53,577 nucleotides of DNA, from NCBI GenBank assembly GCA_900542595.1, contig UQOB01000002.1, positions 1 through 53,577 on the forward strand, given 5' to 3'. Below, in pieces: positions 21,048 to 53,349 of this stretch. The notes under the pieces were generated by a model that was given only the letters and a program-made list of their open reading frames with translations, was not told where the DNA came from and did no database searches. How positions within the stretch are numbered: the stretch's first letter is position 1; every line of letters begins with the position of its first letter. The DNA is from an uncultured Mollicutes bacterium (lineage in GTDB: Bacteria; Bacillota_I; Bacilli_A; RFN20; CAG-826). Position numbers and translations under genes: made by a program.

Positions 21048-23570
<2,523 letters not shown>

Positions 23571-23574
<4 letters not shown>

Positions 23575-26164: not shown

Positions 26165-26168
26165 AAGC

Positions 26169-26411: not shown

Positions 26412-26436
26412 AAGTTTTTCCTCCCGATATCAAATT

Positions 26437-31302: not shown

Positions 31303-31303
31303 A

Positions 31304-34453: not shown

Positions 34454-36779
34454 CGTCTTCTTCCTCCGCGTTTATTTCATCACTATCGACAATATTCGGG
34501 TCACTGGTAATTTGTTTCGTTTTATAGCAAATGCCGTTATAAGGACAATATTTACAGGCTTCTTTATTATCTGGTTTAATTGGGAAATCGCCAGCATTTC
34601 TCTTTTTAGAAGCATCTCGAACAAAACCTTCGGCTTTAAGAGCAATATTTTTTAGAAAGTCTGAATTTCTAGCGTTTGAATTAGCATAAAAACCCTTTTT
34701 CGAATAACGGGATTTTTTAACAATATCAAGCTTATTAGTTAACTGATCAAAAGCTAATAAGTCATTAAGGAAAGGACCAGAAAGCATCGAACTATCTTTC
34801 TGCAGTGCAATCGTTTCATCTACATCTAATAAACCTTTCACCGCTTTGATGGAGGCAATATACGCCCCTTGAAAAGTAAGGTTTTCAAATGTTTCGTCCT
34901 TTTCACTCAGAAAATAATAGAGAGGCAATTGCAAGGAGCGTCCTTTTTCAAGTTCTTTATATGAAAACCCGGCATCACCGGTTTTAAAGTCTAGGATGGA
35001 ATAATATCTACCATAAGTAATAACAAGGTCAACTCTTCCGCCTAAAGAGAGTTTTTCATCAAACTCATAGGCAAAATCACGTTCATGGTCAAAATGAGAA
35101 TTTGCGATGGCTTTGAAGGCTTCACGATATTTATCAAAACTAATCTTTAAATGTTGAAATTCATTTTCAATTAACGCTTCTTCTAATTTGGTTAATGGTG
35201 GTTTTTGGCTTTCGTTATTTTTAATCGCTCTTGCTTTTAAGGTTTCAAAGTCTTCTGTTCCCTCTACTCCTTCAAAAATTTCATGAGCGAGTGTTCCATA
35301 ATACGTATGCATCGTGTCTTCATAGGTAGATAGACTCAAAATATAGGAACAGTAATATTGGAAGGGGCAAGCATAATATTTATCCAGCGAACTATAAGAA
35401 AACTTAACCGGTTGGTTTTGGTAACCTGCATTAAAGGATTGGTAAACAGGTAAATAATCGGTGTTTTCAGGGAAACGATCACCCTTAAACCTAATGTAGT
35501 CATCATTAGCGGTCCCGTAGTTATGTTTATCGTCCAAGGCTGCTCGATGAAAATAATTATCGTGAGATTGGCTGAGATTAGTGTCATCCATCGATGCCTG
35601 CTTAAGGTCTTTCTTACTAGTCCCAAAGTACGTGGAAGGTTCGGTCTTCTTGCCTCCCACCGAGTTTGAAAAAGAAATAAAAAGATGATTGTTCTTGATG
35701 AATAAACGTTCTCTTTCCTTTTGCTCCCGTTCTTTCCAAATATTATCCATATAGCCGAGAGCGATTAGATCCTCATCTTCTAAAAAGAGTTCGGCAGAAT
35801 GACCTTTAGGGAAGGACGAAAGGTTGAAATTTAAGAAATAGCCATCTTTACCCTGATATTCATTCGGGGAAGATAGAAGCTCCAATTCCGTTTCATAATG
35901 AATAACAGGTTTACTTATATTCTTAACTGCTTGATCTAAAAGCGATAATTCTTGTTCTTTATTTTCAAAAATCCCTTTAAATCTCAAATATAAAGATTGA
36001 ATTTTCGATATTTCATCAGCGGAATACCCTTCTTTTATTAGAACATCAAAAGGATTTTCTTCTGTTAAAAATAAGGCTCTAAATCTCTTGTAGGTTCCAC
36101 TTCCAAATAGGGAGATGGGCGAAGGGACAGCAATTGGTAAATTACCAAAATCTTTAGCTAAAAATTTTAAGGAAGGGTAATAATTATCATCCGCCCCATA
36201 GATAAAACATTTCTTAAGATAGTCTTTATCCTCTGATGCTTTCCTCGCAATTTCATTGAGGATATAACGGCATTCATCGCCGGGTTCATCAAAGACATAA
36301 ATCGTAGGTTTAAAGTCATCCTCTACCGGTTGTTCAAGGTAAACATGCGGTTCGTTTGTAATTCCATGCTTTTTAAGGAACCCTTTGATCGGAGTCGCAT
36401 CAAAATAACCAGCGATAACAATAGAACGACTATATTCTTCGAGGAGATTATCTTTGATATCCAAAAGATGTTCTTTTAAGAATTCTTCTTGCCAGGTTTT
36501 TAACTTATCAAATTTCGCTTTAGTTGTTTCTTTAAGGTGGGGGCTTTTAATGGCCTTGACGTACGCGAGAGCTAAGTTATAATCTTCCCCTTTTTTAAGG
36601 ATTTCTCTCAGCACCCGGTCATCAGCTTGATAGAAAAAATCATCGATGACATCTTCAAAAGACTTTAAAGAAAAAGCGAGATGAGGATTTGTTCTCCTCA
36701 TCGCTAAATAGCCTTTAAAGTTACTCCTCGGAGTGATAATTAAAGGATTTTTATACTGCTTGATGTCGTCGATTTTCAC
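34440..36779 (-). CDS. addB: helicase-nuclease subunit AddB/RexB, short form
   Basis: 779 aa with a GTG start. Nuclease motif GRVDLVITYGRYYSILDFKTG. Fe-S cluster cysteines are present (YYACPFQ ... CKYCPYNGIC). No Walker A motif seen. Confidence 0.8.
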   Translation of the reverse strand: MKIDDIKQYKNPLIITPRSNFKGYLAMRRTNPHLAFSLKSFEDVIDDFFYQADDRVLREILKKGEDYNLALAYVKAIKSPHLKETTKAKFDKLKTWQEEFLKEHLLDIKDNLLEEYSRSIVIAGYFDATPIKGFLKKHGITNEPHVYLEQPVEDDFKPTIYVFDEPGDECRYILNEIARKASEDKDYLKKCFIYGADDNYYPSLKFLAKDFGNLPIAVPSPISLFGSGTYKRFRALFLTEENPFDVLIKEGYSADEISKIQSLYLRFKGIFENKEQELSLLDQAVKNISKPVIHYETELELLSSPNEYQGKDGYFLNFNLSSFPKGHSAELFLEDEDLIALGYMDNIWKEREQKERERLFIKNNHLFISFSNSVGGKKTEPSTYFGTSKKDLKQASMDDTNLSQSHDNYFHRAALDDKHNYGTANDDYIRFKGDRFPENTDYLPVYQSFNAGYQNQPVKFSYSSLDKYYACPFQYYCSYILSLSTYEDTMHTYYGTLAHEIFEGVEGTEDFETLKARAIKNNESQKPPLTKLEEALIENEFQHLKISFDKYREAFKAIANSHFDHERDFAYEFDEKLSLGGRVDLVITYGRYYSILDFKTGDAGFSYKELEKGRSLQLPLYYFLSEKDETFENLTFQGAYIASIKAVKGLLDVDETIALQKDSSMLSGPFLNDLLAFDQLTNKLDIVKKSRYSKKGFYANSNARNSDFLKNIALKAEGFVRDASKKRNAGDFPIKPDNKEACKYCPYNGICYKTKQITSDPNIVDSDEINAEEEDDGMD

Positions 36780-36809: not shown

Positions 36810-38294
36810 TTAAATATCTTTTGTCTTAAACGCTCGGGTCGCTTTCACCGCGGTTTTCCAACCACGATATTTCTTTTCTCTCGTTTCTTTATCGAGTTTC
36901 GGGGTAAAGATATTTTCTTTCCGGCTCGCGATTAAGCTTTCAAGGTCATCGAAGAAGTGTGTATAGATGCTGGCGAGATAAGCCGCTCCGAGAGCGGTTG
37001 TTTCTTTTTCGGTTTGGACCCCGACTTTCACCCCTAAAATATCGCTTTGGAATTGCATCAAAAGATTATTTTGGCTCGCTCCCCCATCGGCTTTAAGAAC
37101 CTTTAGTTTGAGCTTAGCTTCTTTTTTCATAATGTCGAAGACGTCACGACTTTGATAGGCGATGCTTTCGAGAGCCGCTCGGGTGATATGGTGGCGGCTG
37201 ACGCCTCTTGTTAAACCAACAATCGCTCCCCTCGCTTCTTCATCCCAATAAGGTGTTCCAAGCCCGGTAAAACTCGGGACAAAGTAGATGCCGTTACTAT
37301 CGCTCACCTTATTAGCGTGCATCTCGCTGTCACTGCTGCTTTTGATCCAGCCTAATTGGTCACGGACGTATTGAACGACCGCACCCCCGATAAAGACACT
37401 ACCTTCTAAAGCGTAAGTTACTTGCCCATTAATTTTCCAAGCGACAGTCGAAAGTAAACCATGCTTACTATCCACCACTTTATCCCCGGTATTCATCAGC
37501 ATAAAGCAACCGGTGCCGTAGGTGTTTTTGCTGTCCCCTTCTTTAAAGCAACCTTCCCCGAATAAAGCAGCTTGTTGGTCACCGGCTACCCCGGTGATGA
37601 TGAGGTCATGGTTAAAGAAATCAGCGTGACCAAACATGTCAACATTTTCTTTGATTTCCGGAAGCATGGCTCTCGGAATATTGAAGAGTTTTAAAAGCTC
37701 ATCATCCCAAGTGAGAGTGTGGATATTAAATAACAATGTTCTTGAAGCGTTCGTGATATCGGTGACGTGAGATTTTCCCTTCGTCATCCGGTAAATTAAG
37801 AAAGTTTCGACCGTTCCAAAAAGGAGTTCGCCGGCTTCCGCTCGGGCTTGGAAGGTCGGGTCTTGTTCTAAGATATAACGAATCTTACTAGCGCTAAAAT
37901 AGGGGTCTAATCTAAGACCAGTTTTGGCTTTTAAGAAGTCCTCGTACTTTTCATAACGCTTAACGACTTCTAAAGAATCTCTTCCCTGCCACACGATAGC
38001 GGGAAAGACCGCTTTCCCCGTCGCTTTTTCAAAGACAATCGTGGTTTCTCTTTGAGTCGCGATCCCTAAACAAGCGATATCGGAAAACGAAACATTACTT
38101 CTAATCAATACATCATTGATGACATCGACCACCGAGATCCAGATTTCTTCCGGGTCTTGCCGGACAAAGCCCGGAGCAGGGAAAGTGCAATGTACTTCCC
38201 TTTGGGCCTTTTGAATGACCTTACCGGTTTTATCCACGAGTATCGCTCGCGTGGAGGTCGTTCCTTGGTCGATGCTCAAGATGTAAGATTTCAT
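36810..38294 (-). CDS. glpK: glycerol kinase
   Basis: 494 aa. N-terminus YILSIDQGTTSTRAIL, plus GDQQAALFG and the FGGY fold. Confidence 0.95.
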   Translation of the reverse strand: MKSYILSIDQGTTSTRAILVDKTGKVIQKAQREVHCTFPAPGFVRQDPEEIWISVVDVINDVLIRSNVSFSDIACLGIATQRETTIVFEKATGKAVFPAIVWQGRDSLEVVKRYEKYEDFLKAKTGLRLDPYFSASKIRYILEQDPTFQARAEAGELLFGTVETFLIYRMTKGKSHVTDITNASRTLLFNIHTLTWDDELLKLFNIPRAMLPEIKENVDMFGHADFFNHDLIITGVAGDQQAALFGEGCFKEGDSKNTYGTGCFMLMNTGDKVVDSKHGLLSTVAWKINGQVTYALEGSVFIGGAVVQYVRDQLGWIKSSSDSEMHANKVSDSNGIYFVPSFTGLGTPYWDEEARGAIVGLTRGVSRHHITRAALESIAYQSRDVFDIMKKEAKLKLKVLKADGGASQNNLLMQFQSDILGVKVGVQTEKETTALGAAYLASIYTHFFDDLESLIASRKENIFTPKLDKETREKKYRGWKTAVKATRAFKTKDI

Positions 38295-39583
38295 AAATGG
38301 CTCCGGCTCGCTAAAAGTTTTTCAATTTCTTCAGGTTCTTTCAAAATTTCTTTCGTTAAGACTTCACATCCGTCTTTGGTGATTAAAAGGTCATCTTCAA
38401 TTCTAATCCCAATTCCGAGATCTTCAAAGTAGAGCCCCGGTTCGTCGCTGATTACCATCCCTTCTTCTAATGGAAGTTCTTTGTATTTTCTATCGACCGG
38501 TGAAAGATAAGGATCATGGGTATCAAGGCCAATCATGTGGCTGACGTTATGGAAATAGACATTGACGATATCTTTCTTATCTTTTAAGAAGCCTTTTTCG
38601 ACGAGCCGTGTCGCTAAAAGCTCGATGGTCGCGTTCTGTAAGTCTTGAACTGTGATACCAGGCTTCGCTAAATTGATGACGAGTTTATTGGCTTCTAAAA
38701 CGATTTCATAGAGCGAACGTTGAACGGAGGTAAATTTTCCATTAATCGGGAAGGTTCTCGACACATCCGCGCAGTAGTACCCGCTTCTCGCTCCTAAGTC
38801 CATCAGGAGTAAATCCCCATCTTTTAAGGTATCTAAGGGAGTAGGATAGTGAAGAACAGTTCCGTGCATGCCGCTCGCCATGATAGTGTGGAAAGATAAG
38901 CCATGATAATGGTTTAAATCGTTGATCGTGTGGAAGAAGATATCCGCCATTTCGTATTCTTTCGCCCCCGGAATCATCTTGTTAATAGTTGCTAAAATGC
39001 CAAGTTTCGTAATTTTGATAGCTTTTCTAAATTCTTCGATTTCGGCTGGGGATTTTCTGAGTCTCAGAGTCGTGACTAAGGGATAAGCATCTTTAATCTT
39101 GAGGGACGGATATTTTTCGTGGAGACTAGCGATTAAATCTTTAACCGAATATTCCGATTTAATCTTGATTTCCCGATCAAAGTCAAAGTAGACATTATCG
39201 AGAACATCATACGAAGCAATTTCCGGATTTAAACAGCTTTCCAGTCTCGCTTCAAAAGCGGTATTTTCTAAGACATTATTGATACCCGAGATATCGCTCG
39301 CTTCTTTCGGGGTTAACCGTTTCCCGTACCATTTTTCTTTGTTCTTATCGAAGGGGGAGATGAAGAGGAAGGTTTTTCTTTCCCCGTACGCGTTTACCAT
39401 GAAGAGGACGCTATCTTCTTGCTCGATGCCGGTTAAATAGTAGAAGTTCCGGTTAACTTCAAAATCATAATCTTCATCCGCGCTTTTAACTTTACCAACG
39501 CCGGAGAAGAGAACTAAAAGACTATTGTCTTCCATCATCGAAAAGAGTTTTTCTCTTCGACTTTCGAATTCCTTTTTATTCAT
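38291..39583 (-). CDS. pepP: Xaa-Pro aminopeptidase (M24B) with an N-terminal AMP_N domain
   Basis: 430 aa. Metal ligand motifs DLGARSGYYCADVSRT, HNVSHMIGLDTHD, SDEPGLY, IRIEDD. Confidence 0.88.
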   Translation of the reverse strand: MNKKEFESRREKLFSMMEDNSLLVLFSGVGKVKSADEDYDFEVNRNFYYLTGIEQEDSVLFMVNAYGERKTFLFISPFDKNKEKWYGKRLTPKEASDISGINNVLENTAFEARLESCLNPEIASYDVLDNVYFDFDREIKIKSEYSVKDLIASLHEKYPSLKIKDAYPLVTTLRLRKSPAEIEEFRKAIKITKLGILATINKMIPGAKEYEMADIFFHTINDLNHYHGLSFHTIMASGMHGTVLHYPTPLDTLKDGDLLLMDLGARSGYYCADVSRTFPINGKFTSVQRSLYEIVLEANKLVINLAKPGITVQDLQNATIELLATRLVEKGFLKDKKDIVNVYFHNVSHMIGLDTHDPYLSPVDRKYKELPLEEGMVISDEPGLYFEDLGIGIRIEDDLLITKDGCEVLTKEILKEPEEIEKLLASRSHL

Positions 39584-40194
39584 TTATTAAGCTCCTTTAA
39601 AATCATTTGGCTTTCTTTTTTTATCTCGATATTCAGGAGATAGTTTTTGATGAAAGCCTCTATAATGGTAACACTTCCGAGCAAGACAAGGTTTATCGAC
39701 ATACCAAAATTTTTATTGAGGACAGTGATACCTTCCCTTTCGATAATTTTCTCGATCTGGTTGTAGGTTTTGTAATCGATATCGAAGGTGATTTTTTCCC
39801 CTTCAATATAGACCCCATATTCCCCCTTCTTTAAGGCTAAAGATGCCGCGTCCCCGTACGTCCTTCTAAGGCGTGGGAGACCGAGCTTAATGCCGCCGTA
39901 AAAACGAATTACCGCTGCAAAAACCCCATAAACTTTTTCTTTTCTTAAAATATTGAGGATGGTGTAACCCCCGGAATTAGAGGGTTCTCCGTCTTGAGAA
40001 AAGCCCTCCTTTTCATCCAACACATAAGCATAGCAAAGGTGGTCCGCTTTCGGGTATTTGGCCTCGAAATCTTTGATAAACTTATCCACTTCTTCTTCCT
40101 TAGACAAAGGAAAAACGTGGGTAAAGAATTCAGAGTTTTCAAGGCAGATATAAGAAGTAACAGGTTTTAAAAGGTACCGCTTAGGACAGCTCAT
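39580..40194 (-). CDS. yigZ: IMPACT/YigZ (UPF0029) family protein
   Basis: 204 aa. Contains KADHLCYAYVL and GEPSNSGG as in YigZ. The ATG lies inside the last codons of the giant gene (14-nt overlap). Confidence 0.8.
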   Translation of the reverse strand: MSCPKRYLLKPVTSYICLENSEFFTHVFPLSKEEEVDKFIKDFEAKYPKADHLCYAYVLDEKEGFSQDGEPSNSGGYTILNILRKEKVYGVFAAVIRFYGGIKLGLPRLRRTYGDAASLALKKGEYGVYIEGEKITFDIDYKTYNQIEKIIEREGITVLNKNFGMSINLVLLGSVTIIEAFIKNYLLNIEIKKESQMILKELNK

Positions 40195-43100
40195 AATTTA
40201 AGACGGATTTAAGAGTAGACCAACGGTTGGTTTCGTACTTCTGATTAAGGTCATACCAGACATCCCGGTGGTTATCTAATAACGGCATTCCGTTATAAGT
40301 CGAGCTTAAGAGGCTATCGAGATAGAGACTGTAGTAAAGAACAGTAGTGACTTCCACCGCATATTTACCATATCCATCGCCGATGAGACGGTCGAGGTCT
40401 CTTTGAAGAGTATCTAAATCGTCATTAGTGATGGTGATGATGCTCTTATTCGGCATTTTCTTAAGAGCCACATCGACTATCCGGTCAAGGTAACTCGCCA
40501 TCCATTCCGCGTCAGTAACGGTCATCGCGTCTTTCATAAAGTCAACGAAAGACATCTTGCCGTGGATGTGTTCAGGATTACTACACTGCTCGATCATTTC
40601 TAAACGATTCTTAAAAGGAACGATCACGTGAGAAGGTAAGTTCGCCGTATACACCCCGCTGACTAAGTAGGTGTAGTTCCGGTTAAACATACTGGTGAGA
40701 AGGTTACCCGCGATTGCTTGGGCGATGGTTCCATCATAATAGAGGCCTGTCGCATTCGCGCTTACGTTATTCAAGAGTAAGTTATGAAGGTTCTGCATCG
40801 CATCAGGACTACTATTAAAGAAATCAAAGTAATATCTCGGCGAATATTCACCCTTAGTAATTTGATTTTGGGTCATCGAAAGGACACCTAAGGAATCGTT
40901 AACCAAGAACTGCCCAATATCCGCAAGGTTGTCAAATAAATGTTTCATTTCGCGGTAATAAACGTCATGCCCATCGGCCGGGACAGTTTCCTTTTGATAA
41001 ACATCAGAGATACCGTTAAGAACATGTTCAATTGAGACATAATCATCACGTCTTAAGACATCACCCGAAACATTGAGATCAGCGTAGAAGGTTTTATCAA
41101 AATAATCCGCGAGATTAAGTTGAATCTGACGACTACTGCCGTAGCTCACACTTCCCGCTTGATTTAAGAGGTTATAAAGGAAGAGCGATTTAACTTGGAA
41201 AGTATTATCGGCCGCTTCGGTGATAACGTAAGAACCATTATCCCCTAACGCGTAATTTTCGCCTTCAAAGAAGCCGCCTTCATAGTTGATGAAATGGAGG
41301 AGGTTTCCAAGCCGGCTGGCTCCGGTTTCCGCGTTGCTAAACATTTCTTGGACTAAGTTTTCACTTAAGGCGGTGTAACTGTTAGTGCTATCGTCCCAGA
41401 GAACGTTGATGGCTAAAGTAATGGCTGGGATACCGCTATCTTGGTATTGTTGTTGGTTGAGTAAATAATTTGCCCCATTATGAGCTTGCCCATCGACAGT
41501 TAAAACAGTGTAATCATTGAACTTCAAGCTATTGTTCAGGAGCTTATCCGTTTCGTAGCCGACGGCTGGACTTACGATATCGAGAGCGTTAAATTTATAA
41601 AGCACATTAGAAAGAACCGTTGGGTTTAAAGTATTGAAGTTAATGGTGTCGAAATCTATCCCTTCCCCATATAAGTCTTGATTTAAAAGATAGCTGAAAA
41701 TCCCTTCTTCCGGATTGAATAAGTTATGGATTTCATCGGTCCATTTACCCGCGTGCATCGAGGCTAATGTCCCGTCTGACATCCCTTTGATTCGGCTATG
41801 GAGGTTAAGCTGATAAGTAGCGGCTTCGTCGATGGAAGCGTTGTACGCTCTTTGAGCGAGACCAGTCTTGTCATAAAGCATGTACATGACTTGTTCAAAG
41901 ACCGTCATATCGTCCGGTGCACCGAGCGAAGTGATGGTTGAGCTCGGATTTCTCGCTCCGGCCCCGTGGAAAACTTCACTTTCTAAAAGGCTATCGAAGA
42001 GGTTTTCAAAAACGCTTAAGTCATCGAGACTAATCGCCGTTCCAGTCGTGAAGTTACTGAAGAGAGTGCTGCTATCATAGATTAAATAAATGGCTCTACT
42101 TAAATTAGTGATTTCGCTAGCGGGATAGGCCGCTTCATAATCCGGATGGAGAGGATCCATATAATAAACGAAGAAAGAATTGGCTTGTTTTAAGTTGATG
42201 TCACTCGCTAAGAGGTCACTGTTATTAGCGATGGCGTCATCGATAATGTTCGGGAGCAAATCTTTCGTGAGTTCGCAATCATTGACCGCGCTCAATAAGG
42301 AGTTGATATCCGCTTCTTCTAAGGCGCTTAAATCACCATTAGTAATAGCACTTTCTAAAGTCGGATCAGCTAAGAGTTCAATGATGGATTTTAAGGAATC
42401 AGTTTCCCCGTTGATAATCGGTTCATTGATATCGGTGACAGTGAAGGCAGGAGAAATTTCTCCGAACAATTTTGTCGCGTAATACACTGCTTTTTCATTG
42501 CTATTAGTGTAATAGCCTTCACTTATCGCATGAGCATCTTTATCGCTATTTTCACTGAAGTAATACTTACCTAACGACGGGTTAGAGAAGATGAGTTGAT
42601 AGGTGTCTTGGAAAACCGTCATGCTTTTCCCTTCAATTTTCGAGTTGAAGATGTGGCTATTAGCTAAATAGCTTAAGAGGTTAGTGACTTGGCCAGAGGG
42701 GATATCAGCGAGTTGGAAGTTATTGAAATCTATCGTCCCCATCGTCATCGCTTCTTTAAAGATATAAGAAAGGGTGCGGATTTCGTCTTTCCCGTACGGG
42801 GCATCGCCATTATAGTGGACGTTCGCTAAGGTTAAATCGAGACCACTTAAGTTATTGCCAATGGTGGAAATCGCTTCATCGATCTTTAAAGGTAATGCTC
42901 GATAAAGGGTGGTACTGTTATTAATGGAGTCAAGGATATTTTCTAAGGTCACCCGGCTTTCTTCCGGATCCCCTTCAAAGAAATTAGCGATATCAAAATC
43001 CGCTAAATCAAGAGAAGCATTTTGCGCTTCTCTTAAGGCTCCTAAGATGTTATGGATTTCGTTGTCCCAGCAGACAAACCGATCATCAGCTGTTACTGCG

Positions 43101-46100
43101 GGTTTGGTAACTTCTTTGACGTAACCTTCAATTTCCGAAACCGGGGTGGTGCCGTAAATACCGCTTTCACTTAAGAGCGCCGCGTATTCTTTTTCAAAAG
43201 CGCTTAAGGTTTCAGTGGATCCCTCTTCAACCGTATTGAAAACATAGCTATTAGCGAAGCTGTTGAGGAAGGGCTCTAAGGTGTAATCGACATTGATTTC
43301 GGTGATGTTGAAATTCATATCGATGTTGCCGTTTTCATCGATGAAACCATAGACAGGGTCATGGATGACATCGACGATATTTATTAAGTTTTCAATTTCA
43401 TGAACAGTGACATCATTATCGGCGGTCCAGAGAATCTTATCATTGATGCCGCTGAAGCTTTCAAAGCCGTTTTTAGTGAGAGCGGTCGCCAGTTGACTGA
43501 AGGTATTCGGTATTAAAAGGTTATGGAAAATGGCGCTTTCGTTACTGCTTAAAAGTAAGTCTTCTAAGGAAGACGGGTTAATAGCGGACAAATCTAAATC
43601 CTCGGTCATATCGCCGAGTCCCTTGAGTTGGAAGGAATGGACGATGTCGACTAAAATATCCGCTTGATGCGGCCATTCTTCACGGGTGATGCTATTGATG
43701 TTATTTTCTAAGGTATTGTAGGTGGTTGCCCCTTCATCGCCGAGATACTTCGCAATCGATTTGTTTCCTTCCGCGTTATTGATAAATAAGTCGGAAATGA
43801 AACCATTAAATAAGTATTCATTATCTTCGGTGAGGAAGATGCTACTTTGCGATAAGGATTCAATGATGTTGCCCACCGCTTGAGCGTCGCTATTGAAGAC
43901 ATCGATGTTATTTAAATCACCAATTTCACCAGCGGATCTGATGATGATGTTGAGGTTCTTCCCTTCATCCGCCCAACTCTTGACGTTTTCAAAGCTGATG
44001 CGGCAATCGACATCTTTAAAGATATCCATGGTGAGAATCTTATCGTCGAGCATTCCGGCTAAGGCAATCTTCATAATGCCGGAGTTATCGACGCGGCTAA
44101 AGAGAGTTTCGAAGTTAATGCTTTCTAAGGCGCTGAAATCAAGAGTATCGCTATTGATGACGCTAAGGACGTCGCTATCAGCGACATCGACGAAGACATC
44201 GACGAAGCTACTGACTTCTAAGCTCGCATTGAAATCTGGACTCACAATATAGCTATGAATGCGGTCGGCGATTTCTTCATTGAATAAGTCTTTTACTAAG
44301 AAATCAAAGATCGATGCAAAGTTATAGTTCTTGACCCCATCGATTTCGCTATTTAATAGAGGATTAGTGGCAAAGAGAGTTAAGAAGGATTTTAAATCAT
44401 CGGAATAAGAGGCAAGTTCACTGACAAAGTTACTTAAAGAAGCGGAGTTACTTAAATCGGTAGAAATACCGCTCATCATAAAGGTGACAAAGTCTTGGCT
44501 TTGGTTATAGGTGACGATGATATCCGCTAAACTATTACCGATATCGAGATCAGGATCACTGAAGTCAAATTTCAAATCGAAATCTAAATCTTTTAATATT
44601 CCATTTTCACCGGTTAAAAGTTGATCGAAAGCCTGCGGCATGATGGTTCTGGCGATGACGGAATCATCCAGTTTTCTTAAAGCGGCGGTAAAGGCATCCA
44701 TCAAGCCTTCATCCGCTCCTAAATATTGACCGGTCGGATCAAAATAGAAGCCCGGCATCGTCTTGAGGTTAACAAAGAAATTCTTACCTTCAGGGACACT
44801 CACAAAAGCATTAATCACCCCGAATAAAGAATGGAATTCACTCTTCATCCGGCTAATTTGCCCGGTGAAATCCGTTTCGGTATCTTTCTTTAAAAGAGTA
44901 TTTCTAATTTCCGATAAATCGAGGTTAAAACTAAGCCCACCTTCCGAACCTTGGCCCATATCGCCTAAGAATTTATCGGCTAAATCAAGGATTTCGTTCC
45001 AGCCGTAGTTGATGAAAACGCTGTCGAGGAGACCGAGGTTTTCATAGGGATCAGCTGTTTCTTCCCCTTCTTCGGTTGTTTCAACTTGCGGCGCTGCCGC
45101 TACTTGTTTCCCGGTGAAAATCATCTCCGCTTCCGCTGGGTGATCAGCGATAAGTTCCAACAGTTTATCCATCCGGATAACGAGGCCCGCTTCATCTTGA
45201 GTGACAAATTGCACTAAGAAGGCTGGGTCAAGAGTGATGAACTTGATTAAGGAACTATAGACGAGCGAAACTTCATGTCCCCACTTCATATCCTTATATG
45301 TACCAGGGATATAATCCGGGTACCCATTATTATCGGCATCGATATCTTCCGGAAGAGGCGGGAAGAAACCGGCCGCATCAGAGAGACCAATTTGACTGCC
45401 TTCTATTGGCTGTTCTTTGGAAGCTTTGAAAGCGAGGTTTAAAGTCACCGCTTCGATCATCGTATCAAAGAACTTCATTTCTTCTTTATCTAATGATTCA
45501 AAGATATCGATAAAGGTCGTATAGAATTGATCTGATAAAGTCGTTTGAATGAGTTGATCGTTTTGAATTAAGTTACCTTGATCATCGGTCAATTCATCGA
45601 GGTAACCCGATTGAATGACGGAATCATAGATATCGATTAAATCATCGATGGTTGCGGTGTAATTGAAATCCTTCATGTAGTCGATTCCGGTGTCGACTTT
45701 CACATATTCCGCAATCATCGGGAGATTGACGGCAATCGTCACGGCGCTCGGAAGGATAGAAGAAACTAAAGAGCTATTGTTTAAGGCCCTTAAGGTTAAG
45801 GGAGCTAAGGACGATGTCACAAAGGAAATTAAGGCAGTTTCTTGGACCCCTGCTTTTCCGATGATACCGGATTGGACGATATAGTTTCCCGCTTCTACGA
45901 AATTAGAAAGTTCATTGAGGAAGCCCGCGGACACTCCACCGGTTTCAATATTGGTTAAGAAATCGATGAGAACAGTGTCAAACGTCTTTCCATCCGCGTT
46001 TCTCGACCAGTTAAAGAAAGCTTGAGCAAAGATTGATTCATCGTAGGTTTTTAAGAGTTGATCGAGGTCATTGTAGAAATCATTATCGACCGTTTTTAAC

Positions 46101-46777
46101 GTGACTTCTGAGTTCTCTTTAGCTTTATTCCACCCGCTGTTGACCCCATTAATAATCGAGGTCAGAGGGAAAATCGCTAAGGTTAAACAGACAAAACAGG
46201 TGACCGCATTTAAGAGCCCACCCATGAGTTTGCCTTTTTTGTAGCTGGCTTTTCTCTTGTTTTTCTTGATGAAGCGTTTGAAAGCCAAGTGCCACATAAT
46301 CCAAATAAATAAGGTTCCAAAGATGGCGATTAAGATGGCATCAGCAAAGAGCAAGATAATGGTGATTAAAGATAGGGCTAAAGAATAAGAGTAATTAACG
46401 AGATCCGCCGGGTTCATGTCGATATCCATGCCCCGTAGAATCTGATCAGCGACGGACGCAATAGTGTCGAGCGGCGTTGTCCAAGCGGCACTGACGTTGA
46501 TGGTGGTACCATCGACATTCAAACTGAAATTCAGAGCGGGTAAACCGAAACTCGAAATATCCATCGTTCCTACCATTTGGGCAAGAGGTCTCGCGGTTAA
46601 GAAAGCGAGAACGACAAACAAAGTGAAAAACACTAAACGATAGGTCGCATACCGCCAGCCCCGGAATAAGCCCCGGAGAAAGGCGAGAACTAACACGACG
46701 AAGAAGGCGATAAAAAGTCCTAGGAGTGTATAATCAAGTATCGATATAATATTGTCTAAGGTGGCCGCGTCAAACAT
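40181..46777 (-). CDS. giant (2198 aa) membrane-anchored acidic protein, function unknown; N-terminal CvpA-like 4-TM module
   Basis: An uninterrupted 6.6-kb ORF. The N-terminal ~210 aa have 4 hydrophobic helices, and the first two (LDYTLLGLFIAFFVVLVLAFLRGLFRGWRY...LVFFTLFVVLAFLTARPLAQMV) resemble the CvpA/colicin-V-production family pattern. The remaining ~1990 aa are visibly rich in D/N/S/L/F/I and poor in K/R. I recognise no domain or obvious internal repeat there. Confidence 0.8.
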   Translation of the reverse strand: MFDAATLDNIISILDYTLLGLFIAFFVVLVLAFLRGLFRGWRYATYRLVFFTLFVVLAFLTARPLAQMVGTMDISSFGLPALNFSLNVDGTTINVSAAWTTPLDTIASVADQILRGMDIDMNPADLVNYSYSLALSLITIILLFADAILIAIFGTLFIWIMWHLAFKRFIKKNKRKASYKKGKLMGGLLNAVTCFVCLTLAIFPLTSIINGVNSGWNKAKENSEVTLKTVDNDFYNDLDQLLKTYDESIFAQAFFNWSRNADGKTFDTVLIDFLTNIETGGVSAGFLNELSNFVEAGNYIVQSGIIGKAGVQETALISFVTSSLAPLTLRALNNSSLVSSILPSAVTIAVNLPMIAEYVKVDTGIDYMKDFNYTATIDDLIDIYDSVIQSGYLDELTDDQGNLIQNDQLIQTTLSDQFYTTFIDIFESLDKEEMKFFDTMIEAVTLNLAFKASKEQPIEGSQIGLSDAAGFFPPLPEDIDADNNGYPDYIPGTYKDMKWGHEVSLVYSSLIKFITLDPAFLVQFVTQDEAGLVIRMDKLLELIADHPAEAEMIFTGKQVAAAPQVETTEEGEETADPYENLGLLDSVFINYGWNEILDLADKFLGDMGQGSEGGLSFNLDLSEIRNTLLKKDTETDFTGQISRMKSEFHSLFGVINAFVSVPEGKNFFVNLKTMPGFYFDPTGQYLGADEGLMDAFTAALRKLDDSVIARTIMPQAFDQLLTGENGILKDLDFDLKFDFSDPDLDIGNSLADIIVTYNQSQDFVTFMMSGISTDLSNSASLSNFVSELASYSDDLKSFLTLFATNPLLNSEIDGVKNYNFASIFDFLVKDLFNEEIADRIHSYIVSPDFNASLEVSSFVDVFVDVADSDVLSVINSDTLDFSALESINFETLFSRVDNSGIMKIALAGMLDDKILTMDIFKDVDCRISFENVKSWADEGKNLNIIIRSAGEIGDLNNIDVFNSDAQAVGNIIESLSQSSIFLTEDNEYLFNGFISDLFINNAEGNKSIAKYLGDEGATTYNTLENNINSITREEWPHQADILVDIVHSFQLKGLGDMTEDLDLSAINPSSLEDLLLSSNESAIFHNLLIPNTFSQLATALTKNGFESFSGINDKILWTADNDVTVHEIENLINIVDVIHDPVYGFIDENGNIDMNFNITEINVDYTLEPFLNSFANSYVFNTVEEGSTETLSAFEKEYAALLSESGIYGTTPVSEIEGYVKEVTKPAVTADDRFVCWDNEIHNILGALREAQNASLDLADFDIANFFEGDPEESRVTLENILDSINNSTTLYRALPLKIDEAISTIGNNLSGLDLTLANVHYNGDAPYGKDEIRTLSYIFKEAMTMGTIDFNNFQLADIPSGQVTNLLSYLANSHIFNSKIEGKSMTVFQDTYQLIFSNPSLGKYYFSENSDKDAHAISEGYYTNSNEKAVYYATKLFGEISPAFTVTDINEPIINGETDSLKSIIELLADPTLESAITNGDLSALEEADINSLLSAVNDCELTKDLLPNIIDDAIANNSDLLASDINLKQANSFFVYYMDPLHPDYEAAYPASEITNLSRAIYLIYDSSTLFSNFTTGTAISLDDLSVFENLFDSLLESEVFHGAGARNPSSTITSLGAPDDMTVFEQVMYMLYDKTGLAQRAYNASIDEAATYQLNLHSRIKGMSDGTLASMHAGKWTDEIHNLFNPEEGIFSYLLNQDLYGEGIDFDTINFNTLNPTVLSNVLYKFNALDIVSPAVGYETDKLLNNSLKFNDYTVLTVDGQAHNGANYLLNQQQYQDSGIPAITLAINVLWDDSTNSYTALSENLVQEMFSNAETGASRLGNLLHFINYEGGFFEGENYALGDNGSYVITEAADNTFQVKSLFLYNLLNQAGSVSYGSSRQIQLNLADYFDKTFYADLNVSGDVLRRDDYVSIEHVLNGISDVYQKETVPADGHDVYYREMKHLFDNLADIGQFLVNDSLGVLSMTQNQITKGEYSPRYYFDFFNSSPDAMQNLHNLLLNNVSANATGLYYDGTIAQAIAGNLLTSMFNRNYTYLVSGVYTANLPSHVIVPFKNRLEMIEQCSNPEHIHGKMSFVDFMKDAMTVTDAEWMASYLDRIVDVALKKMPNKSIITITNDDLDTLQRDLDRLIGDGYGKYAVEVTTVLYYSLYLDSLLSSTYNGMPLLDNHRDVWYDLNQKYETNRWSTLKSVLNYELS

Positions 46778-46783
46778 GTTAAT

Positions 46784-46818
46784 ATTTTGGCGGAAAACCT
46801 TCTAATTTTCAATTAGAA
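46784..46818 (-). promoter_or_regulatory. candidate promoter of the giant gene (TTGAAA-17-CAAAAT-6-ATG) overlapped by a perfect 8-3-8 palindrome
   Basis: On the minus strand: -35 TTGAAA (46807-46812), -10 CAAAAT (46784-46789), ATG at 46777, and no SD. The palindrome TTCTAATT-TTC-AATTAGAA spans 46800-46818 in the 54-nt divergent intergenic region. Confidence 0.3.
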
Positions 46819-46831
46819 AACACAAGAAAAC

Positions 46832-47683
46832 ATGAATATTTGGCAACGATTTGTAAAGAAAAAATGTGAAAAATGTGAGAAAGAGTATGATCCCTTAGAA
46901 AAAACTTGCCCTTTTTGCCATGAAATAAATCCTATCAGCCAAAAAGGTGATAGGGCTCTCGCGGTTTTAGATTGGAAAAAAGAAGTTGGATTATTCGGTG
47001 TTGGAACTTTAGGCTTCTACATTTTCGGCTTACTTCTCTCTTTAATAATTACGTCGATTGCCCAGAATGTTCTCTATGAAGCTGGCTTCACTGGAGCATC
47101 TTTAACCGCGGGTTTAAATGACTATATTTCTAGCGCCTCCTACACGATTCTCGTTAACTATTTGGTCTATCTTTTAATGCTGATCACCGATTTCTTCTTG
47201 ATTGGAAAATGCCTGCATAAAGTCTTTGATTCCTTTAAAAATTCAAAATTTGCCTTTGGTTTTGCTATCGGTATTGTGATTTTTGGAGTTTCAATGCTCT
47301 TAACTTATCTCTTAAGTTTTGCCGGTACTCACACCAGCGATAACCAAGTGATCATTGAGCAAGCTTCTAGCCAATATGCATTACTAACTGCGATATTGAC
47401 CATCGTCATAGCACCTCTCGTTGAAGAGCTCACTTACCGGGTTGGTCTCTTCACTGTTTTAAAACGGATCAATGTTTATTTTGCTTATGCGGCGGTCGCG
47501 ATTATCTTCGGCTTAATGCATATGAAGAACTTCGCGAGCCTCAACGAATGGTTGAATGTCATCGTCTATATGGTCGGTGGTCTTGGCTTAACTTTCGCTT
47601 ACCACCACTTCGGCTTTGCCGGAAGTTTTGCGGCTCATCTGACTTATAACTTAATCGGCACTATCTGGAACGCTTTAGCTTAA
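46832..47683 (+). CDS. CPBP-family (CAAX/Abi) intramembrane glutamic protease with an N-terminal zinc ribbon
   Basis: 283 aa. Zinc ribbon CEKCEKEYDPLEKTCPFCHE. CPBP motifs VEELTYR, FGLMHM, AAHLTYN. Confidence 0.8.
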   Translation: MNIWQRFVKKKCEKCEKEYDPLEKTCPFCHEINPISQKGDRALAVLDWKKEVGLFGVGTLGFYIFGLLLSLIITSIAQNVLYEAGFTGASLTAGLNDYISSASYTILVNYLVYLLMLITDFFLIGKCLHKVFDSFKNSKFAFGFAIGIVIFGVSMLLTYLLSFAGTHTSDNQVIIEQASSQYALLTAILTIVIAPLVEELTYRVGLFTVLKRINVYFAYAAVAIIFGLMHMKNFASLNEWLNVIVYMVGGLGLTFAYHHFGFAGSFAAHLTYNLIGTIWNALA

Positions 47684-47692
47684 GGAGAACAA

Positions 47693-48571
47693 ATGAAAAA
47701 ACATCTATATCTGAATGAAAGCCTCCTCAAAATCTTCGGCATCGTCTTCATGACCTTCGACCATATCGGGGCTTACATCATCTCAAGCGGTGTCGCTCCC
47801 GATAATAGCCCGCTCTACTGGACCGCTTACGTCTTTCGAATCATCGGTCGTTTAGCTCTTCCCCTCTTCCTCTTCTTCTTAGCGGAAGGGATGAGAAAAA
47901 GTCATGATCGAGCTAATTATCTCTTAAGATTAGCGTTGATTTGGGCCCCTATCTTAATTGTCGACCTCATCCTTTATTATTTAAGTCCCTCGCTCAGCCA
48001 AGCTCAGGCTTTCACGGACCTCTTAGTCTGCGGTCTCTTTGTCTTTTTCTTAGAGAAGAAAGGATGGATGAAAGCGTTAGCGGCGATTCCTGCTATTTAT
48101 GTTGGTTTAAGTTTCGCTGCTAATACTTATGAGATGGTGACTCAAACGGCCACTTGGACAGTTTATTTCCCCCTCTTCCTCCGAGCGGACTATTCGCTTT
48201 ACGGCTTCCTCATCTTCCTCGGCTTCTACTACGCTTACCCCATCATCGACAAATGGTTAAAAGGCAATGTTCTTTTAGGAGGAAAAACTTTAGAAGAATA
48301 TAAAGAAACCCCAGATTACCGGTGGACAATCAACATTTTTAACTTCACGATTTTCGTTGTCATCAACGTTGTTTTCTGGACTATCTACCGCTTCTTACCG
48401 GCCGCCGATTACTTAAATATGGGGATCCAAACCTATAGTATTTTGGCCGGTCTCTTCCTGCTATTTTACAATGGTAAAAGAGGCTACGACAAAAAGTGGT
48501 TCCGCTATTTCACCTATTTATATTACCCGGTGCATATAGCTTTAATTGCCTTAATCTTTTGGCTAATATAG
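47693..48571 (+). CDS. TraX-family membrane protein
   Basis: 292 aa, polytopic. N-terminal LKIFGIVFMTFDHIG is typical of TraX. AAGGAG lies 5 nt upstream of the ATG. Confidence 0.72.
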   Translation: MKKHLYLNESLLKIFGIVFMTFDHIGAYIISSGVAPDNSPLYWTAYVFRIIGRLALPLFLFFLAEGMRKSHDRANYLLRLALIWAPILIVDLILYYLSPSLSQAQAFTDLLVCGLFVFFLEKKGWMKALAAIPAIYVGLSFAANTYEMVTQTATWTVYFPLFLRADYSLYGFLIFLGFYYAYPIIDKWLKGNVLLGGKTLEEYKETPDYRWTINIFNFTIFVVINVVFWTIYRFLPAADYLNMGIQTYSILAGLFLLFYNGKRGYDKKWFRYFTYLYYPVHIALIALIFWLI

Positions 48572-48592
48572 GTTTCGTCAGGAGGTCAAATA

Positions 48593-48901
48593 ATGATTAA
48601 ACACATTCACGACAAAAACGAATTCTTAAAAGAAATTGCCGACAATGATAAAGTCCTCGTCGATTTCTTCGCCACTTGGTGCGGACCGTGCCAAATGCTT
48701 ACTCCGGTAGTTGAAAAGGTCAGCAAAGATTGCCCGGAACTCTTAGTCATCAAGGTCGATGTCGACCAAGCCCCCGAACTCGCGGCGATGTACACCATCT
48801 TCAGTGTCCCGACCCTTCAATACTTTGAAAAGGGCAAACTCGTCAGGCAAGAAGCGGGCTATCGTCCTGAAGCATCCTTACTAAAATTTGTTAATCTTTA
48901 A
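48593..48901 (+). CDS. trxA: thioredoxin
   Basis: 102 aa. Active site FFATWCGPCQML. AGGAGG upstream. Confidence 0.93.
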   Translation: MIKHIHDKNEFLKEIADNDKVLVDFFATWCGPCQMLTPVVEKVSKDCPELLVIKVDVDQAPELAAMYTIFSVPTLQYFEKGKLVRQEAGYRPEASLLKFVNL

Positions 48902-49100: not shown

Positions 49101-49177
49101 GGACCATTGGTGTAGCGGTCTAGCATATCTCCCTGTCACGGAGAAGATCACGGGTTCGAATCCCGTATGGTCCGCCA
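49101..49177 (+). tRNA. tRNA-Asp (anticodon GTC), CCA encoded
   Basis: Hand-folded cloverleaf: acceptor GGACCAT/ATGGTCC, anticodon arm TCTCC-CTGTCAC-GGAGA, T arm ACGGG-TTCGAAT-CCCGT, then G-CCA. Confidence 0.93.
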
Positions 49178-49180
49178 ATT

Positions 49181-49254
49181 GCAGACATAGTTCAGTGGTA
49201 GAACATTAGCCTTCCAAGCTAATTATGCGGGTTCGATTCCCGTTGTCTGCTCCA
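49181..49254 (+). tRNA. tRNA-Gly (anticodon TCC), CCA encoded
   Basis: Acceptor GCAGACA/TGTCTGC, D arm GTTC-AGTGGTA-GAAC, anticodon arm TTAGC-CTTCCAA-GCTAA, T loop TTCGATT, then T-CCA. Confidence 0.93.
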
Positions 49255-51566: not shown

Positions 51567-52691
51567 TTAGGCTAAAGGATAAAGGAAGGCCGCTCCCATA
51601 ATATGTTCGATGTCGAGCGGTTTTCCGTCGTAATTTTTACTGATTAAAGTATCGTCAATCGCGAGGTTTAAAGTGCCGTTATTGATAACGTCGCCGTTAC
51701 TTAAATAGTTGCCGGTTAATTCCGTTCCAGCGGGGAACGTTAAGGTCTTCTCTAAGTAAGAAAGAGTTACTTCATCGGTACTCGTCGTTCCTAATTTGAA
51801 ACCTTCCGTATAATTCACATAGATGATGTCTTTCGGGGTAGCTGTTAAATATTCTTTGCTATTAACATCGATGGCTTTATCAAAAATTAAAACCGGGAAG
51901 GTGGCTTTCACATTTTCATAGTTATAAGTGATGTCTAAAGTGGGGTTACTAGAGAGGTTCTTTTCTAAGTTTAACCAGCTTTCCCCGTTCGAAAGATAGA
52001 CGGGATATGCAGGGTTATCTTCATTTTGAGATCCCCGATCGAGGTAGAAAGTTCCTTTCCCTTGGATAGTTGTCGGGGCTCCAAAACCGCTCGCCCAAGT
52101 GAATTCAGTTCCTTCGTAGAGGGTGGTGTCAGAAGCGGCGCTAATCGTGTAGCCGGTGAAAGTCGGAACATAACCATATTCCTTGATACCGCCGGTACCT
52201 TCGGGATATTGGATATTTCATTTCTCATTATCTTTATATGTCGCATCAAAGGTGATGATTTGGCTTTCTTCATCCCGAATATATAAAGAGTTTTCTCTAA
52301 ATCTAAATTTTAAGCTGTAATCTTTTTCAACGAAGGAAGCATAGACATTACAGTCAGCGGTAATCTTACTTAAATCAACCGGATCACCATTTTCATAGCT
52401 CCCCTTCCATTCATCGAAGACATAATGTTTACCTGCGGAAGGAGCTTTTTCTGATCTGGATAAATAGTCATAAGGACTATTAGCATCGTTATTTTTAAAG
52501 GTAGCAGCTCTTCCACCGATAACGTAGGAATAACCGATAGCGACCGGCGTTGGAGCGTCGTCATAATAGGTGACCGTGAAGACGTTCTTCATCGCAGTAC
52601 TAGCACCTTCATTATCCCCGCAGGAAACTAAAGAAAGCGTGACAGTTGATAGAGTTAAGGCACTAAAGACAATTTTTTGTATTTTTTTCAT
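51567..52691 (-). pseudogene. lipoprotein gene interrupted by a single in-frame TGA (52218-52220); ORF-track pieces 52218..52706 and 51567..51911 are one reading frame
   Basis: Signal peptide plus lipobox MKKIQKIVFSALTLSTVTLSLVSCG from ATG 52691. Codon-by-codon translation of 52217 down to 51912 has no stop: NIQYPEGTGGIKEYGYVPTFTGYTISAASDTTLYEGTEFTWASGFGAPTTIQGKGTFYLDRGSQNEDNPAYPVYLSNGESWLNLEKNLSSNPTLDITYNYENV. It runs straight into the 114-aa ORF. The N-terminal part has a Listeria/Bacteroides-repeat-like HYVFDEWKG. Confidence 0.6.
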
Positions 52692-52839
52692 CGGGCTTAT
52701 TATCAACTACCGAAGAATAAAAATAAAGGGAAAGCGGAGAAAGTTCGTTATTCTTCCTTTAGGAAGAGGGCGTTTTTCCCTATTGCCTAGCCCCCTTGAT
52801 GAGGGTATATTTATAAAGCGAAAGACGGGTAAATTTCAT

Positions 52840-53349
52840 ATGAAAAAGACAAATACCAATAAAATCCTTATTCTCCTCAGCAATTTAGCGGTTATCATCG
52901 GCATCTTCTGTATGTTCGCGGCCGCTTTTAATGAAGATGGAGGTAGCGTTCGGGGCTCTGTATTCCAAGTCATGGCTCCTCTTAGCGAAACCGGCTACCA
53001 CTTAGTGGTTCCGCTGGTGATTGGCTTAACCATCCTCCTCCTCAGCGTCGTCCTCGGCTTCTTATCCTTGGTCCTCGACAATAAAAAACTTAAATTTGCG
53101 GCTGGCGTCCTCATCGTCCTTGACCTTGCCGGCGCGGTCCTCTTCTTCTTAACTCCGACCTTCTATATGGCCGCTAATCCCCAAATTGGAGATCTTGATT
53201 TAACCGGAGCGACCTCCCTCGGGGCTGGCCCGATTTGCGTCGGGGTGTTCACCATCTTAGGCGCTCTTCTCAGCCTTATCAGCATCGTCCTTAAGGGTAG
53301 CGACACTACTTCTCAACCCGTCAAAGGCGGTATTCGGAGAGCGAGATAA
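52840..53349 (+). CDS. small membrane protein (~4 TM), unknown function
   Basis: 169 aa from ATG 52840 (MKKTNTNKILILLSNLAVIIGIFCMF...). The track's upstream extension to 52570 is antisense to the lipoprotein gene start. A candidate promoter TTGCCT-17-TATATT lies upstream. Confidence 0.6.
   Translation: MKKTNTNKILILLSNLAVIIGIFCMFAAAFNEDGGSVRGSVFQVMAPLSETGYHLVVPLVIGLTILLLSVVLGFLSLVLDNKKLKFAAGVLIVLDLAGAVLFFLTPTFYMAANPQIGDLDLTGATSLGAGPICVGVFTILGALLSLISIVLKGSDTTSQPVKGGIRRAR

Follow-up and report, generated by a model that had tools for sequence, protein, structure and literature searches.

A giant reading frame heads a co-directional gene string

We analyzed a 53,577-nucleotide stretch of DNA (the window; assembly GCA_900542595.1, contig UQOB01000002.1) from an uncultured Mollicutes bacterium of the order RFN20, family CAG-826, and followed up one giant gene that had been singled out from the sequence alone (the original prediction). 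This open reading frame (ORF) takes up 12% of the window, lies on the minus strand (40181–46777), starts with ATG, and encodes 2198 residues. It is the sole open frame there, and its coordinates, strand, and length are as first reported. Its stop codon overlaps the start of yigZ by 14 nt (40181–40194), and the yigZ/pepP and pepP/glpK overlaps measure 4 nt each. Downstream, the giant gene is followed by yigZ, pepP, glpK, addB, addA, and a DUF5677 gene, which together form a co-directional string of 16.6 kb from 46777 to 30157. On its other side, a CPBP/TraX/thioredoxin cluster is transcribed divergently at a distance of 54 bp. The arrangement proposed originally, with the stop inside yigZ, subsequent ATGA overlaps, a 16.6-kb string headed by the giant gene, and divergence from the CPBP cluster, is thereby confirmed. 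The features of the locus are:

40181..46777, minus strand: complete giant ORF including the stop codon; supported by homologues, a ratio of nonsynonymous to synonymous substitution rates (dN/dS) of 0.18, and twelve variants of 2198 residues
39580..40194, minus strand: yigZ (UPF0029/IMPACT-N); start overlaps the giant stop by 14 nt, with a tight junction in 32 of 32 relatives
36810..39583, minus strand: pepP (M24 aminopeptidase P) and glpK (FGGY kinase); 4-nt overlaps, conserved downstream neighbours
46832..48901, plus strand: CPBP (Rce1-like) protease, TraX-family membrane protein, and thioredoxin; conserved upstream in nearly all 47 relatives
46778..46831, no strand assigned: divergent intergenic region of 54 bp with a weak promoter-like site inside

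The promoter-like site reads TTGAAA-17-CAAAAT (46812..46784, minus strand), and its −10-like CAAAAT ends 7 nt before the giant ATG. No Shine–Dalgarno sequence was found within 20 nt of this ATG. The site is a consensus match only, of a kind no more frequent here than in shuffled sequence, and on this basis the giant mRNA might be leaderless.

The giant gene is maintained at full length under purifying selection

At 90% identity, the giant protein belongs to a cluster of 83 members. Twelve of the 14 other members listed are exactly 2198 residues long and 96.5–98.0% identical to it, on contigs of up to 152 kb. These twelve variants come from independent assemblies, and around one of them the gene order is identical to that in the window. 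They speak against the assembly chimera considered at the outset.

Compared with an independent strain, the giant gene has a dN/dS of 0.18, with 0.29 in its module region (see below). The same strain comparison yields 0.02 for PepP, 0.08 for YigZ, 0.10 for TraX, 0.12 for CPBP, and 0.26 for thioredoxin. The giant gene is under purifying selection, yet it diverges much faster than its neighbours. Its length, its dN/dS, and the preservation of 2198 codons in twelve variants place the ORF far beyond chance.

One database protein combines part of the giant with foreign sequence. This chimera (P0018; ENA, 911 residues, 4.7-kb contig) joins 137 residues of an alpha/beta hydrolase to giant residues 302–981 and to the C-terminus of LspA (signal peptidase II); its giant part is 96% identical and corresponds to window positions 43835–45877. 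It is probably a metagenome misassembly elsewhere that leaves the window unaffected.

The giant protein belongs to a lineage-specific family at one chromosomal site

A first protein search returned 16 homologous clusters with 22–33% identity and lengths of 1263–3033 residues, none of them named or carrying a Pfam domain, and 38 further clusters came from a search that started from the most distant relative among them. Scanning one genome per GTDB species, we detected the family in 47 species by alignment-based patterns, while patterns built from a single sequence found none. All 47 are metagenome-assembled genomes (MAGs) of uncultured Bacilli/Bacillota, sampled from gut, rumen, and digesters. 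A few of the bins are obviously misnamed, and two of the genomes bear the label Candidatus Enteromonas. When 50%-identity cluster representatives were searched exhaustively by HMMER with a profile of residues 1–460, 505 passed E ≤ 1e-3, and 180 of these also passed E ≤ 1e-30. With few exceptions, the best 150 of the 505 are either 1.2–3.0 thousand residues long or fragments.

Across relatives, the length ranges from about 1,260 to 3,900 residues. The longest (3921 residues; locus L039, 9917–21679) comes from a water-deer abomasum MAG, and the shortest at the same site (1266–1292 residues) come from two other MAGs (L001 and L002). All three are complete ORFs, each followed by yigZ. The giant is therefore no orphan, as it had been called originally, and far from lacking conservation in relatives it recurs at the same site in 47 species. 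Our literature searches, with incomplete coverage, found no description of the giant family in RFN20. We conclude that the giant protein is a member of a large, undescribed, lineage-specific family in small-genome uncultured RFN20-type Bacilli. It displays the features that define this family: the anchor motifs R-G-x-x-R-G-W and W-H-x-x-F-K-R-F, the motif D-x-Y-[DN]-x-S-x-F-A after the fourth transmembrane helix, tandem modules of ~210 residues, and a site between CPBP-TraX-thioredoxin and YigZ-PepP.

The original prediction had described the lineage as streamlined and possibly wall-less, and the RFN20 literature agrees: small genomes, mostly without peptidoglycan and without sortases, support this context. 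Candidatus Enteromonas corresponds to GTDB genus UBA733 in the order RFN20, family CAG-826 (PMC8035907). The RFN20 families CAG-826 and CAG-288 are, by prediction, peptidoglycan-deficient, and srtA/B are missing from RFN20 (PMC10868615). Moreover, mraY occurs in only 14% and murG in only 5% of RFN20 genomes (PMC7301438).

The neighbourhood of the giant gene is conserved together with the gene itself. In essentially all loci whose flanks suffice, thioredoxin, TraX, and CPBP lie divergently upstream in the order found in the window, and YigZ, PepP, and GlpK follow downstream. Farther out, the upstream genes in relatives include Ham1 and an MFS transporter, and the downstream ones DUF5677 or AddBA. 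In 32 of 32 loci, the distance between the giant stop and the start of YigZ is at most 60 nt in either direction (median overlap 9 nt), and CPBP adjoins the giant gene in 45 of 47 loci, one of the two exceptions having almost no upstream flank. Identity across these loci is 22–33% for the giant protein versus 38–62% for PepP and 53–60% for GlpK; even those of the 47 that are nearest to the window reach no more than ~60% identity in PepP and GlpK. The giant gene is single-copy at this fixed site and co-oriented with yigZ-pepP-glpK. The conserved synteny, together with the low identity of the giant relative to PepP and GlpK, indicates an old, vertically inherited, fast-evolving core gene.

These data support a chromosomal core gene and not mobile cargo, as had been anticipated: position and coupling to yigZ are kept in every relative that can be examined. 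No relatives of the giant were detected on the viral contigs scanned, and PADLOC defence-system models gave no match to it. We therefore reject mobile or phage cargo and a defence system, given the conserved site and the absence of matches among viral contigs, in PADLOC, and in a viral structure library. The proposal of an undescribed system fares less well, as nothing points to a multi-gene system. Since synteny extends over the entire neighbourhood and its housekeeping genes, adjacency by itself does not demonstrate a functional link of the giant to either CPBP/TraX or YigZ/PepP.

The downstream part of the string varies. addB and addA lie between glpK and DUF5677 here and in L002, while in many relatives DUF5677 follows glpK directly. 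In the window, this stretch (30157–36779, minus strand) has a GC content of 0.36–0.38 versus 0.42 around it. DUF5677 itself belongs to the conserved neighbourhood (38–59% identity).

A four-helix anchor is predicted to place the large domain outside the cell

As proposed originally, the first ~210 residues form four transmembrane helices (TM1–TM4), by both hydropathy and AlphaFold2. Hydrophobic segments extend over residues 9–41, 43–69, 126–167, and 183–213 (approximate borders) with nothing convincing afterwards, and by hydropathy no hydrophobic segment follows residue 356. AlphaFold2 places long helices at residues 7–39, 41–70, 123–169, and 183–224, and models loop 2 as a structured insert of 60 residues with a small beta-hairpin plus a helix. 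The elements of the anchor are:

46133..46777, minus strand: N-terminal membrane anchor, residues 1–215, four transmembrane helices, predicted N-out/C-out (hydropathy, AlphaFold2, loop charges)
46637..46675, minus strand: cytoplasmic loop 1, RGLFRGWRYATYR, residues 35–47; family mean net charge +3.3
46229..46279, minus strand: cytoplasmic loop 3, KRFIKKNKRKASYKKGK, residues 167–183; family mean net charge +7.1

Loops 1 and 3 contain the motifs R-G-x-x-R-G-W-R-Y and W-H-x-x-F-K-R-F-I-x-K-x-x-R-K, which are among the most conserved positions. G36, G40, and W41 are invariant in a 17-sequence alignment, and the conserved pair W162-H163 precedes loop 3. Across 55 family members, the loop after TM1 carries a mean net charge of +3.3 and the loop after TM3 one of +7.1, while in all 55 the N-tail and loop 2 are acidic, as is the entire remainder beyond TM4. 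By the positive-inside rule, the basic loops 1 and 3 thus predict an N-out/C-out topology with a domain of ~1,990 residues outside the cell. Applied to 55 members, the rule makes the extracytoplasmic location of the large domain a clear prediction, which addresses the topology question raised with the gene.

At the outer end of TM4 (window 46148–46168), P204, S207, and N210 are invariant or nearly so across the 55 members, and the motif D-x-Y-[DN]-x-S-x-F-A follows ~35 residues later. Residues 204–210 may constitute a processing or interaction site.

The ectodomain is an acidic array of tandem helical modules

Residues 216–2198 have an isoelectric point (pI) of 4.1 and contain 15.2% D+E, 5.4% K+R, 8.1% N, 8.6% S, 11.0% L, and 5.8% F, in line with the acidic, K/R-poor remainder noticed originally. 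Across the family, the pI of the ectodomain is 4.05–4.61 and its mean net charge about −184, with almost no cysteine. The repeats that the original prediction had missed are visible to profile methods only: BLAST self-comparison of the giant reveals none, whereas hhalign and a module hidden Markov model (HMM) resolve at least five tandem modules. The ectodomain is divided as follows:

44699..46132, minus strand: membrane-proximal conserved ectodomain, residues 216–693; invariant residues, low polymorphism
44111..44698, minus strand: helical module 1, residues 694–889; iterated module HMM E 5e-6, and hhalign of 701–900 versus 1501–1750 at 89.9%
43571..44122, minus strand: helical module 2, residues 886–1069; iterated module HMM E 4.5e-14
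42962..43576, minus strand: helical module 3, residues 1068–1272; module HMM E 2e-28 and hhalign
42302..42952, minus strand: helical module 4, residues 1276–1492; module HMM E 9e-39 and hhalign
41582..42316, minus strand: helical module 5, residues 1488–1732; module HMM E 2e-39 and hhalign
40184..41581, minus strand: C-terminal helical region, residues 1733–2198; less conserved, lower model confidence

In hhalign comparisons of family sub-alignments, residues 1231–1500 match 1501–1750 with 99.6% probability (E 4e-24), and residues 1051–1230 match these two segments with 98.3% and 96.9%, respectively. Iterating the module HMM within the family extends the array of ~210-residue helical modules to residues 694–1732. 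A module starts with L-[ND]-[DN]-S-x-[LI] ... L-P, carries W-x-x-E-I-x-N-L in its middle, and shows L-A-N-S-x-I-F-N, T-V-F-E-Q, and W-x-G-E-I-D-x-L towards its end. Relatives of 1263–1289 residues contain three copies and relatives of ~3000 residues eight, and length correlates with copy number over 173 proteins (r = 0.71). The length differences among relatives arise mainly through module number. Residues 1733–2198 are absent from the ~1260-residue relatives.

The membrane-proximal part is the best conserved region of the ectodomain, with invariant Y245, S248, D267, P343, G556, and E647 in addition to the D-x-Y-[DN]-x-S-x-F-A motif; its profile similarity to the modules is weak (hhalign, 57–61%). 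Within the species, polymorphism is lowest at residues 201–400 (3.5% of sites) and reaches 13–17.5% distally.

AlphaFold2 models computed in two tiles consist almost entirely of helices of 10–20 residues with a few short hairpins, each ~210-residue module comprising about 8–12 short helices. The tile of residues 1–1200, modelled from a 55-sequence alignment, has a mean predicted local distance difference test (pLDDT) of 80.5 and a predicted template modelling score (pTM) of 0.54. For residues 1001–2198, pLDDT is 74.1 and pTM 0.62, with low confidence in the last ~300 residues.

The fold lacks a close counterpart among known families

Pfam returned no match to the query at E ≤ 1 and nothing significant for 17 members at E ≤ 10. 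NCBIfam yielded only an alginate lyase (E 0.015) and Scm1 (E 0.01), both at ~14 bits and far under the cut-offs, and PDB sequence searches with the protein and with the N-terminal profile gave nothing below E 0.1. Foldseek searches of both tiles against the PDB, and of tile 1–1200 against BFVD, found no match at E ≤ 1e-3. The structure-based check thus left the giant unassigned to any characterized family, and the original remark that no enzyme signature could be recognized agrees with the lack of a matching characterized family or solved fold.

The best Foldseek neighbours in the PDB are eukaryotic HEAT/ARM solenoids (CAND1, karyopherins, TBCD), all non-significant: the best E-values are 0.0098–0.097, the probability is ≤0.25, and the TM-score is ~0.1, in a whole-tile search that may miss likeness at the level of domains. 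Pfam gave no HEAT/ARM match. Being the only structural neighbours, these solenoids share with the giant long arrays of short antiparallel helices. They are, however, eukaryotic and intracellular with a unit of ~40 residues versus ~210, so that the likeness is one of class and not of family.

Two types of surface protein were considered and rejected. An LPXTG protein is contradicted by the C-terminus RWSTLKSVLNYELS, which contains no LPXTG, by the absence of a late hydrophobic segment, and by the lack of srtA/B in RFN20 (PMC10868615). An S-layer protein is contradicted by the absence of SLH, CWB2, or any other wall-binding domain in the Pfam searches (query at E ≤ 1, 17 members at E ≤ 10). As for helical repeat adhesins of the Ebh/Embp type, Pfam gave no FIVAR, GA, or DUF1542 match, and no Ebh/Embp chain appeared among the best 50 Foldseek PDB matches of either tile.

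Ebh and Embp of staphylococci, built from FIVAR, FIVAR-GA, and DUF1542 repeats, are nevertheless examples of the nearest analogues in function. They are giant Firmicute envelope proteins whose tandem all-alpha modules form an elongated string with variable repeat number, and Ebh, like the giant, is anchored in the membrane and not by sortase. In contrast, their units are three-helix bundles of 125–170 residues, where the modules of the giant have ~210. Further, they combine a signal peptide with a C-terminal transmembrane segment, whereas the giant has an N-terminal four-helix anchor and is encoded in single copy by a core gene of its lineage, always at one site. PMC9302970 describes the architecture of Embp and cites Tanaka et al (2008) for the Ebh helical string of three-helix bundles.

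A second group of comparable proteins occurs in other bacteria with small genomes, namely Giant1–5 of Apilactobacillus kunkeei and Gli349, a giant surface protein of the wall-less Mycoplasma mobile. Like the giant studied here, with its predicted outer domain, they are very large, fast-evolving, and extracellular, and take up a sizeable share of the coding capacity. We detected no relation in sequence or fold: the present family is all-alpha with four transmembrane helices and is encoded by one conserved gene and not by a variable cluster, while beta-solenoid domains make up the N-terminal part of the A. kunkeei giants (PMC12863079). A giant, repeat-built surface protein is of a familiar kind; the anchor, the module, and the fold are without a described counterpart.

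A surface coat, stalk, or adhesin is the favoured interpretation

The giant protein is probably a major cell-surface component, to judge from its predicted topology and architecture. As the leading interpretation, to which we assign a probability of roughly 45%, it would serve as a surface coat, stalk, or adhesin on cells that lack sortases and mostly lack peptidoglycan. The helical array would extend outward from the membrane as a long stalk or brush, similar to a solenoid, and may make up the main surface layer, acting as a negatively charged protective coat or spacer, as an adhesive stalk, or both. The common function would then reside in the invariant proximal part, with the variable distal modules turned towards the environment.

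Several observations weigh against this interpretation. The dN/dS of 0.18 (0.29 in the modules) shows none of the diversifying selection seen in many exposed adhesins. For a structural surface protein, it is unusual to share a conserved operon with yigZ-pepP-glpK, and some RFN20 families are predicted to be walled. The predicted topology has charge bias only as its basis. Moreover, the basic cytoplasmic loops, which are conserved, and the polar residues that are invariant in the ectodomain could signify a signalling, enzymatic, or transport activity more specific than that of a passive coat.

Among the named alternatives, the one that survives best makes the membrane domain the functional core, akin to CvpA or MarP and active in membrane homeostasis or stress resistance, with the ectodomain as a sensory or regulatory appendage and not a coat. 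The original prediction had read the first helix pair as a CvpA signature. MarP is a protease with a CvpA-type anchor of four transmembrane helices in N-out/C-out orientation. The anchor of the giant shares with CvpA (PF02674) and MarP the four helices, a short basic R-G-x-x-R loop after TM1, the predicted N-out/C-out topology, and an extracytoplasmic C-terminal domain. The R-G-x-x-R-G after TM1 resembles I-R-G-F-V-R of E. coli CvpA, the cytoplasmic loops and the ends of the transmembrane helices rank among the best conserved parts, and the sub-threshold Pfam match to Colicin_V is in the right register (residues 23–82 against profile positions 3–62). Four helices with such a basic loop are not, however, specific to CvpA, and the similarity is not significant. 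The Colicin_V match reaches only 8.8 bits against a cut-off of 29.3 (E = 2.1), appears at any level in only 2 of 17 family members, and is absent for the query at E ≤ 1. Aligned by hhalign to E. coli CvpA (b2313), the 55-sequence N-terminal profile scores 0.65% probability over 21 columns, no better than reversed CvpA or unrelated membrane proteins, in what is a weak test given the single-sequence template. NCBIfam found nothing with the anchor alone. Additionally, the giant differs from CvpA by the 60-residue insert with a beta-hairpin in loop 2 and by the appended repeat array of 2,000 residues, and a CvpA/MarP-like function does not explain why ~90% of the protein is an extracellular repeat array conserved along its whole length. 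The signature claim is without statistical support; we treat the CvpA resemblance as a lead and not as membership, and we regard this alternative as unlikely.

A surface function of a different type would be that of an enzyme or binding platform with several modules, directed at polysaccharides or host glycans and built from lyase-type or carbohydrate-binding alpha/alpha modules. The polar residues Y245, S248, E647, S706, N809, N819, E854, E938, and S1177, invariant across 55 sequences, would suit such a platform, as would the polysaccharide-rich habitat indicated by the gut, rumen, and digester titles of the MAGs. The faint NCBIfam match at residues 697–774 is to a mannuronate-specific alginate lyase, but its 14 bits compare with a cut-off of 711, and Pfam offers nothing at E ≤ 1. 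No lyase, hydrolase, or carbohydrate-binding fold occurs among the best 50 Foldseek matches of either tile, none of which reaches E ≤ 1e-3. We consider a glycan platform decidedly improbable.

Reversal of the topology would turn the large domain into a membrane-tethered intracellular scaffold, comparable to the cytoskeletal giants of Mollicutes. All-alpha solenoids are typical of scaffolds, the Foldseek neighbours are cytoplasmic or nuclear eukaryotic HEAT proteins, and the operon contains cytoplasmic housekeeping genes. Yet this orientation would put ~10 Lys/Arg outside the cell, against the charge pattern of two basic short loops and an acidic rest throughout the 55 members. The near absence of cysteine and a pI of ~4.1–4.6, as in secreted Gram-positive proteins, likewise disagree with it, as does the divergence that is faster than in neighbouring genes. 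A cytoplasmic scaffold is very unlikely.

Finally, an artefactual ORF (a chimera of the assembly, a pseudogene, or chance-open non-coding DNA) has next to no probability left, even though the chimera P0018 proves that misassemblies touching the giant gene exist, because the twelve independent variants, the synteny in an independent assembly, the dN/dS, the full-length homologues in 47 species, and the confident AlphaFold2 models all contradict it.

The probability beyond the surface coat, stalk, or adhesin and these alternatives falls to functions not named here.

Other features of the window

A PrkC-like Ser/Thr kinase ORF of 329 residues, with a kinase domain and no PASTA repeats, adjoins a PP2C phosphatase gene (7336–8325 and 8198–8965, both minus strand). 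The two overlap by 128 nt, which suggests that the TTG start of the kinase is over-called. A PrkC without PASTA repeats would be consistent with a lineage in which peptidoglycan is not sensed.

A second low-GC stretch (14001–20000; 0.36–0.39) contains DegV, NFACT/RqcH-like, and choline/ethanolamine kinase-like genes and an unannotated ORF. The choline kinase is a hint that surface lipids or polymers may be decorated with phosphocholine.

Six other ORFs of 114–266 residues have no Pfam match at E ≤ 1e-3 (5968–6663, 11387–11878, 18928–19728, 27308–27799, 51567–51911, and 52570–53349). The one at 27308–27799 is found immediately upstream of the gene for the ATP synthase a subunit. For a small-genome organism of the Bacillus class, the operons for glycogen synthesis (glgC, glgD-like, glgA; 524–4211, minus strand) and F1Fo ATP synthase (21314–27324, minus strand) are ordinary housekeeping context. 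Genes for tRNA-Asp and tRNA-Gly are located at 49101–49254.

Implications for RFN20-type Bacilli

RFN20 and its small-genome relatives among the Bacilli are common inhabitants of the human and animal gut. All are still uncultured, and for most of them the absence of a cell wall and of sortases is predicted. In genomes of 1.2–1.9 Mb, the size range of RFN20 and Candidatus Enteromonas (PMC8035907, PMC7301438), a gene of ~6.6 kb accounts for about 0.4–0.5%. The giant is conserved at one chromosomal site in at least 47 species and carries no annotation anywhere, so that the family constitutes a well-defined annotation gap in an uncultured gut lineage and is well suited to experimental work. The ~210-residue module and the four-helix anchor are candidates for domain-family definitions, which would name hundreds of "hypothetical" giants in metagenomes.

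In its boldest form, the surface interpretation would see in the giant family the main scaffold of the envelope in RFN20-type Bacilli, a brush or alpha-helical "exoskeleton" that replaces the protective role of the lost wall and the display role of sortase-anchored proteins, and that is perhaps matured by the CPBP protease and TraX, for example at P204-x-x-S207-x-x-N210. We hold this extended proposal to be improbable; its maturation step has synteny as its only support. If such processing by CPBP and TraX were true, wall-less bacteria would possess a system of a new kind for sorting surface proteins. If the giant indeed forms the main surface structure, it would be an obvious target for work on interactions with host and phage, for antibodies or probes to enrich these cells, and for studies of envelope evolution after wall loss.

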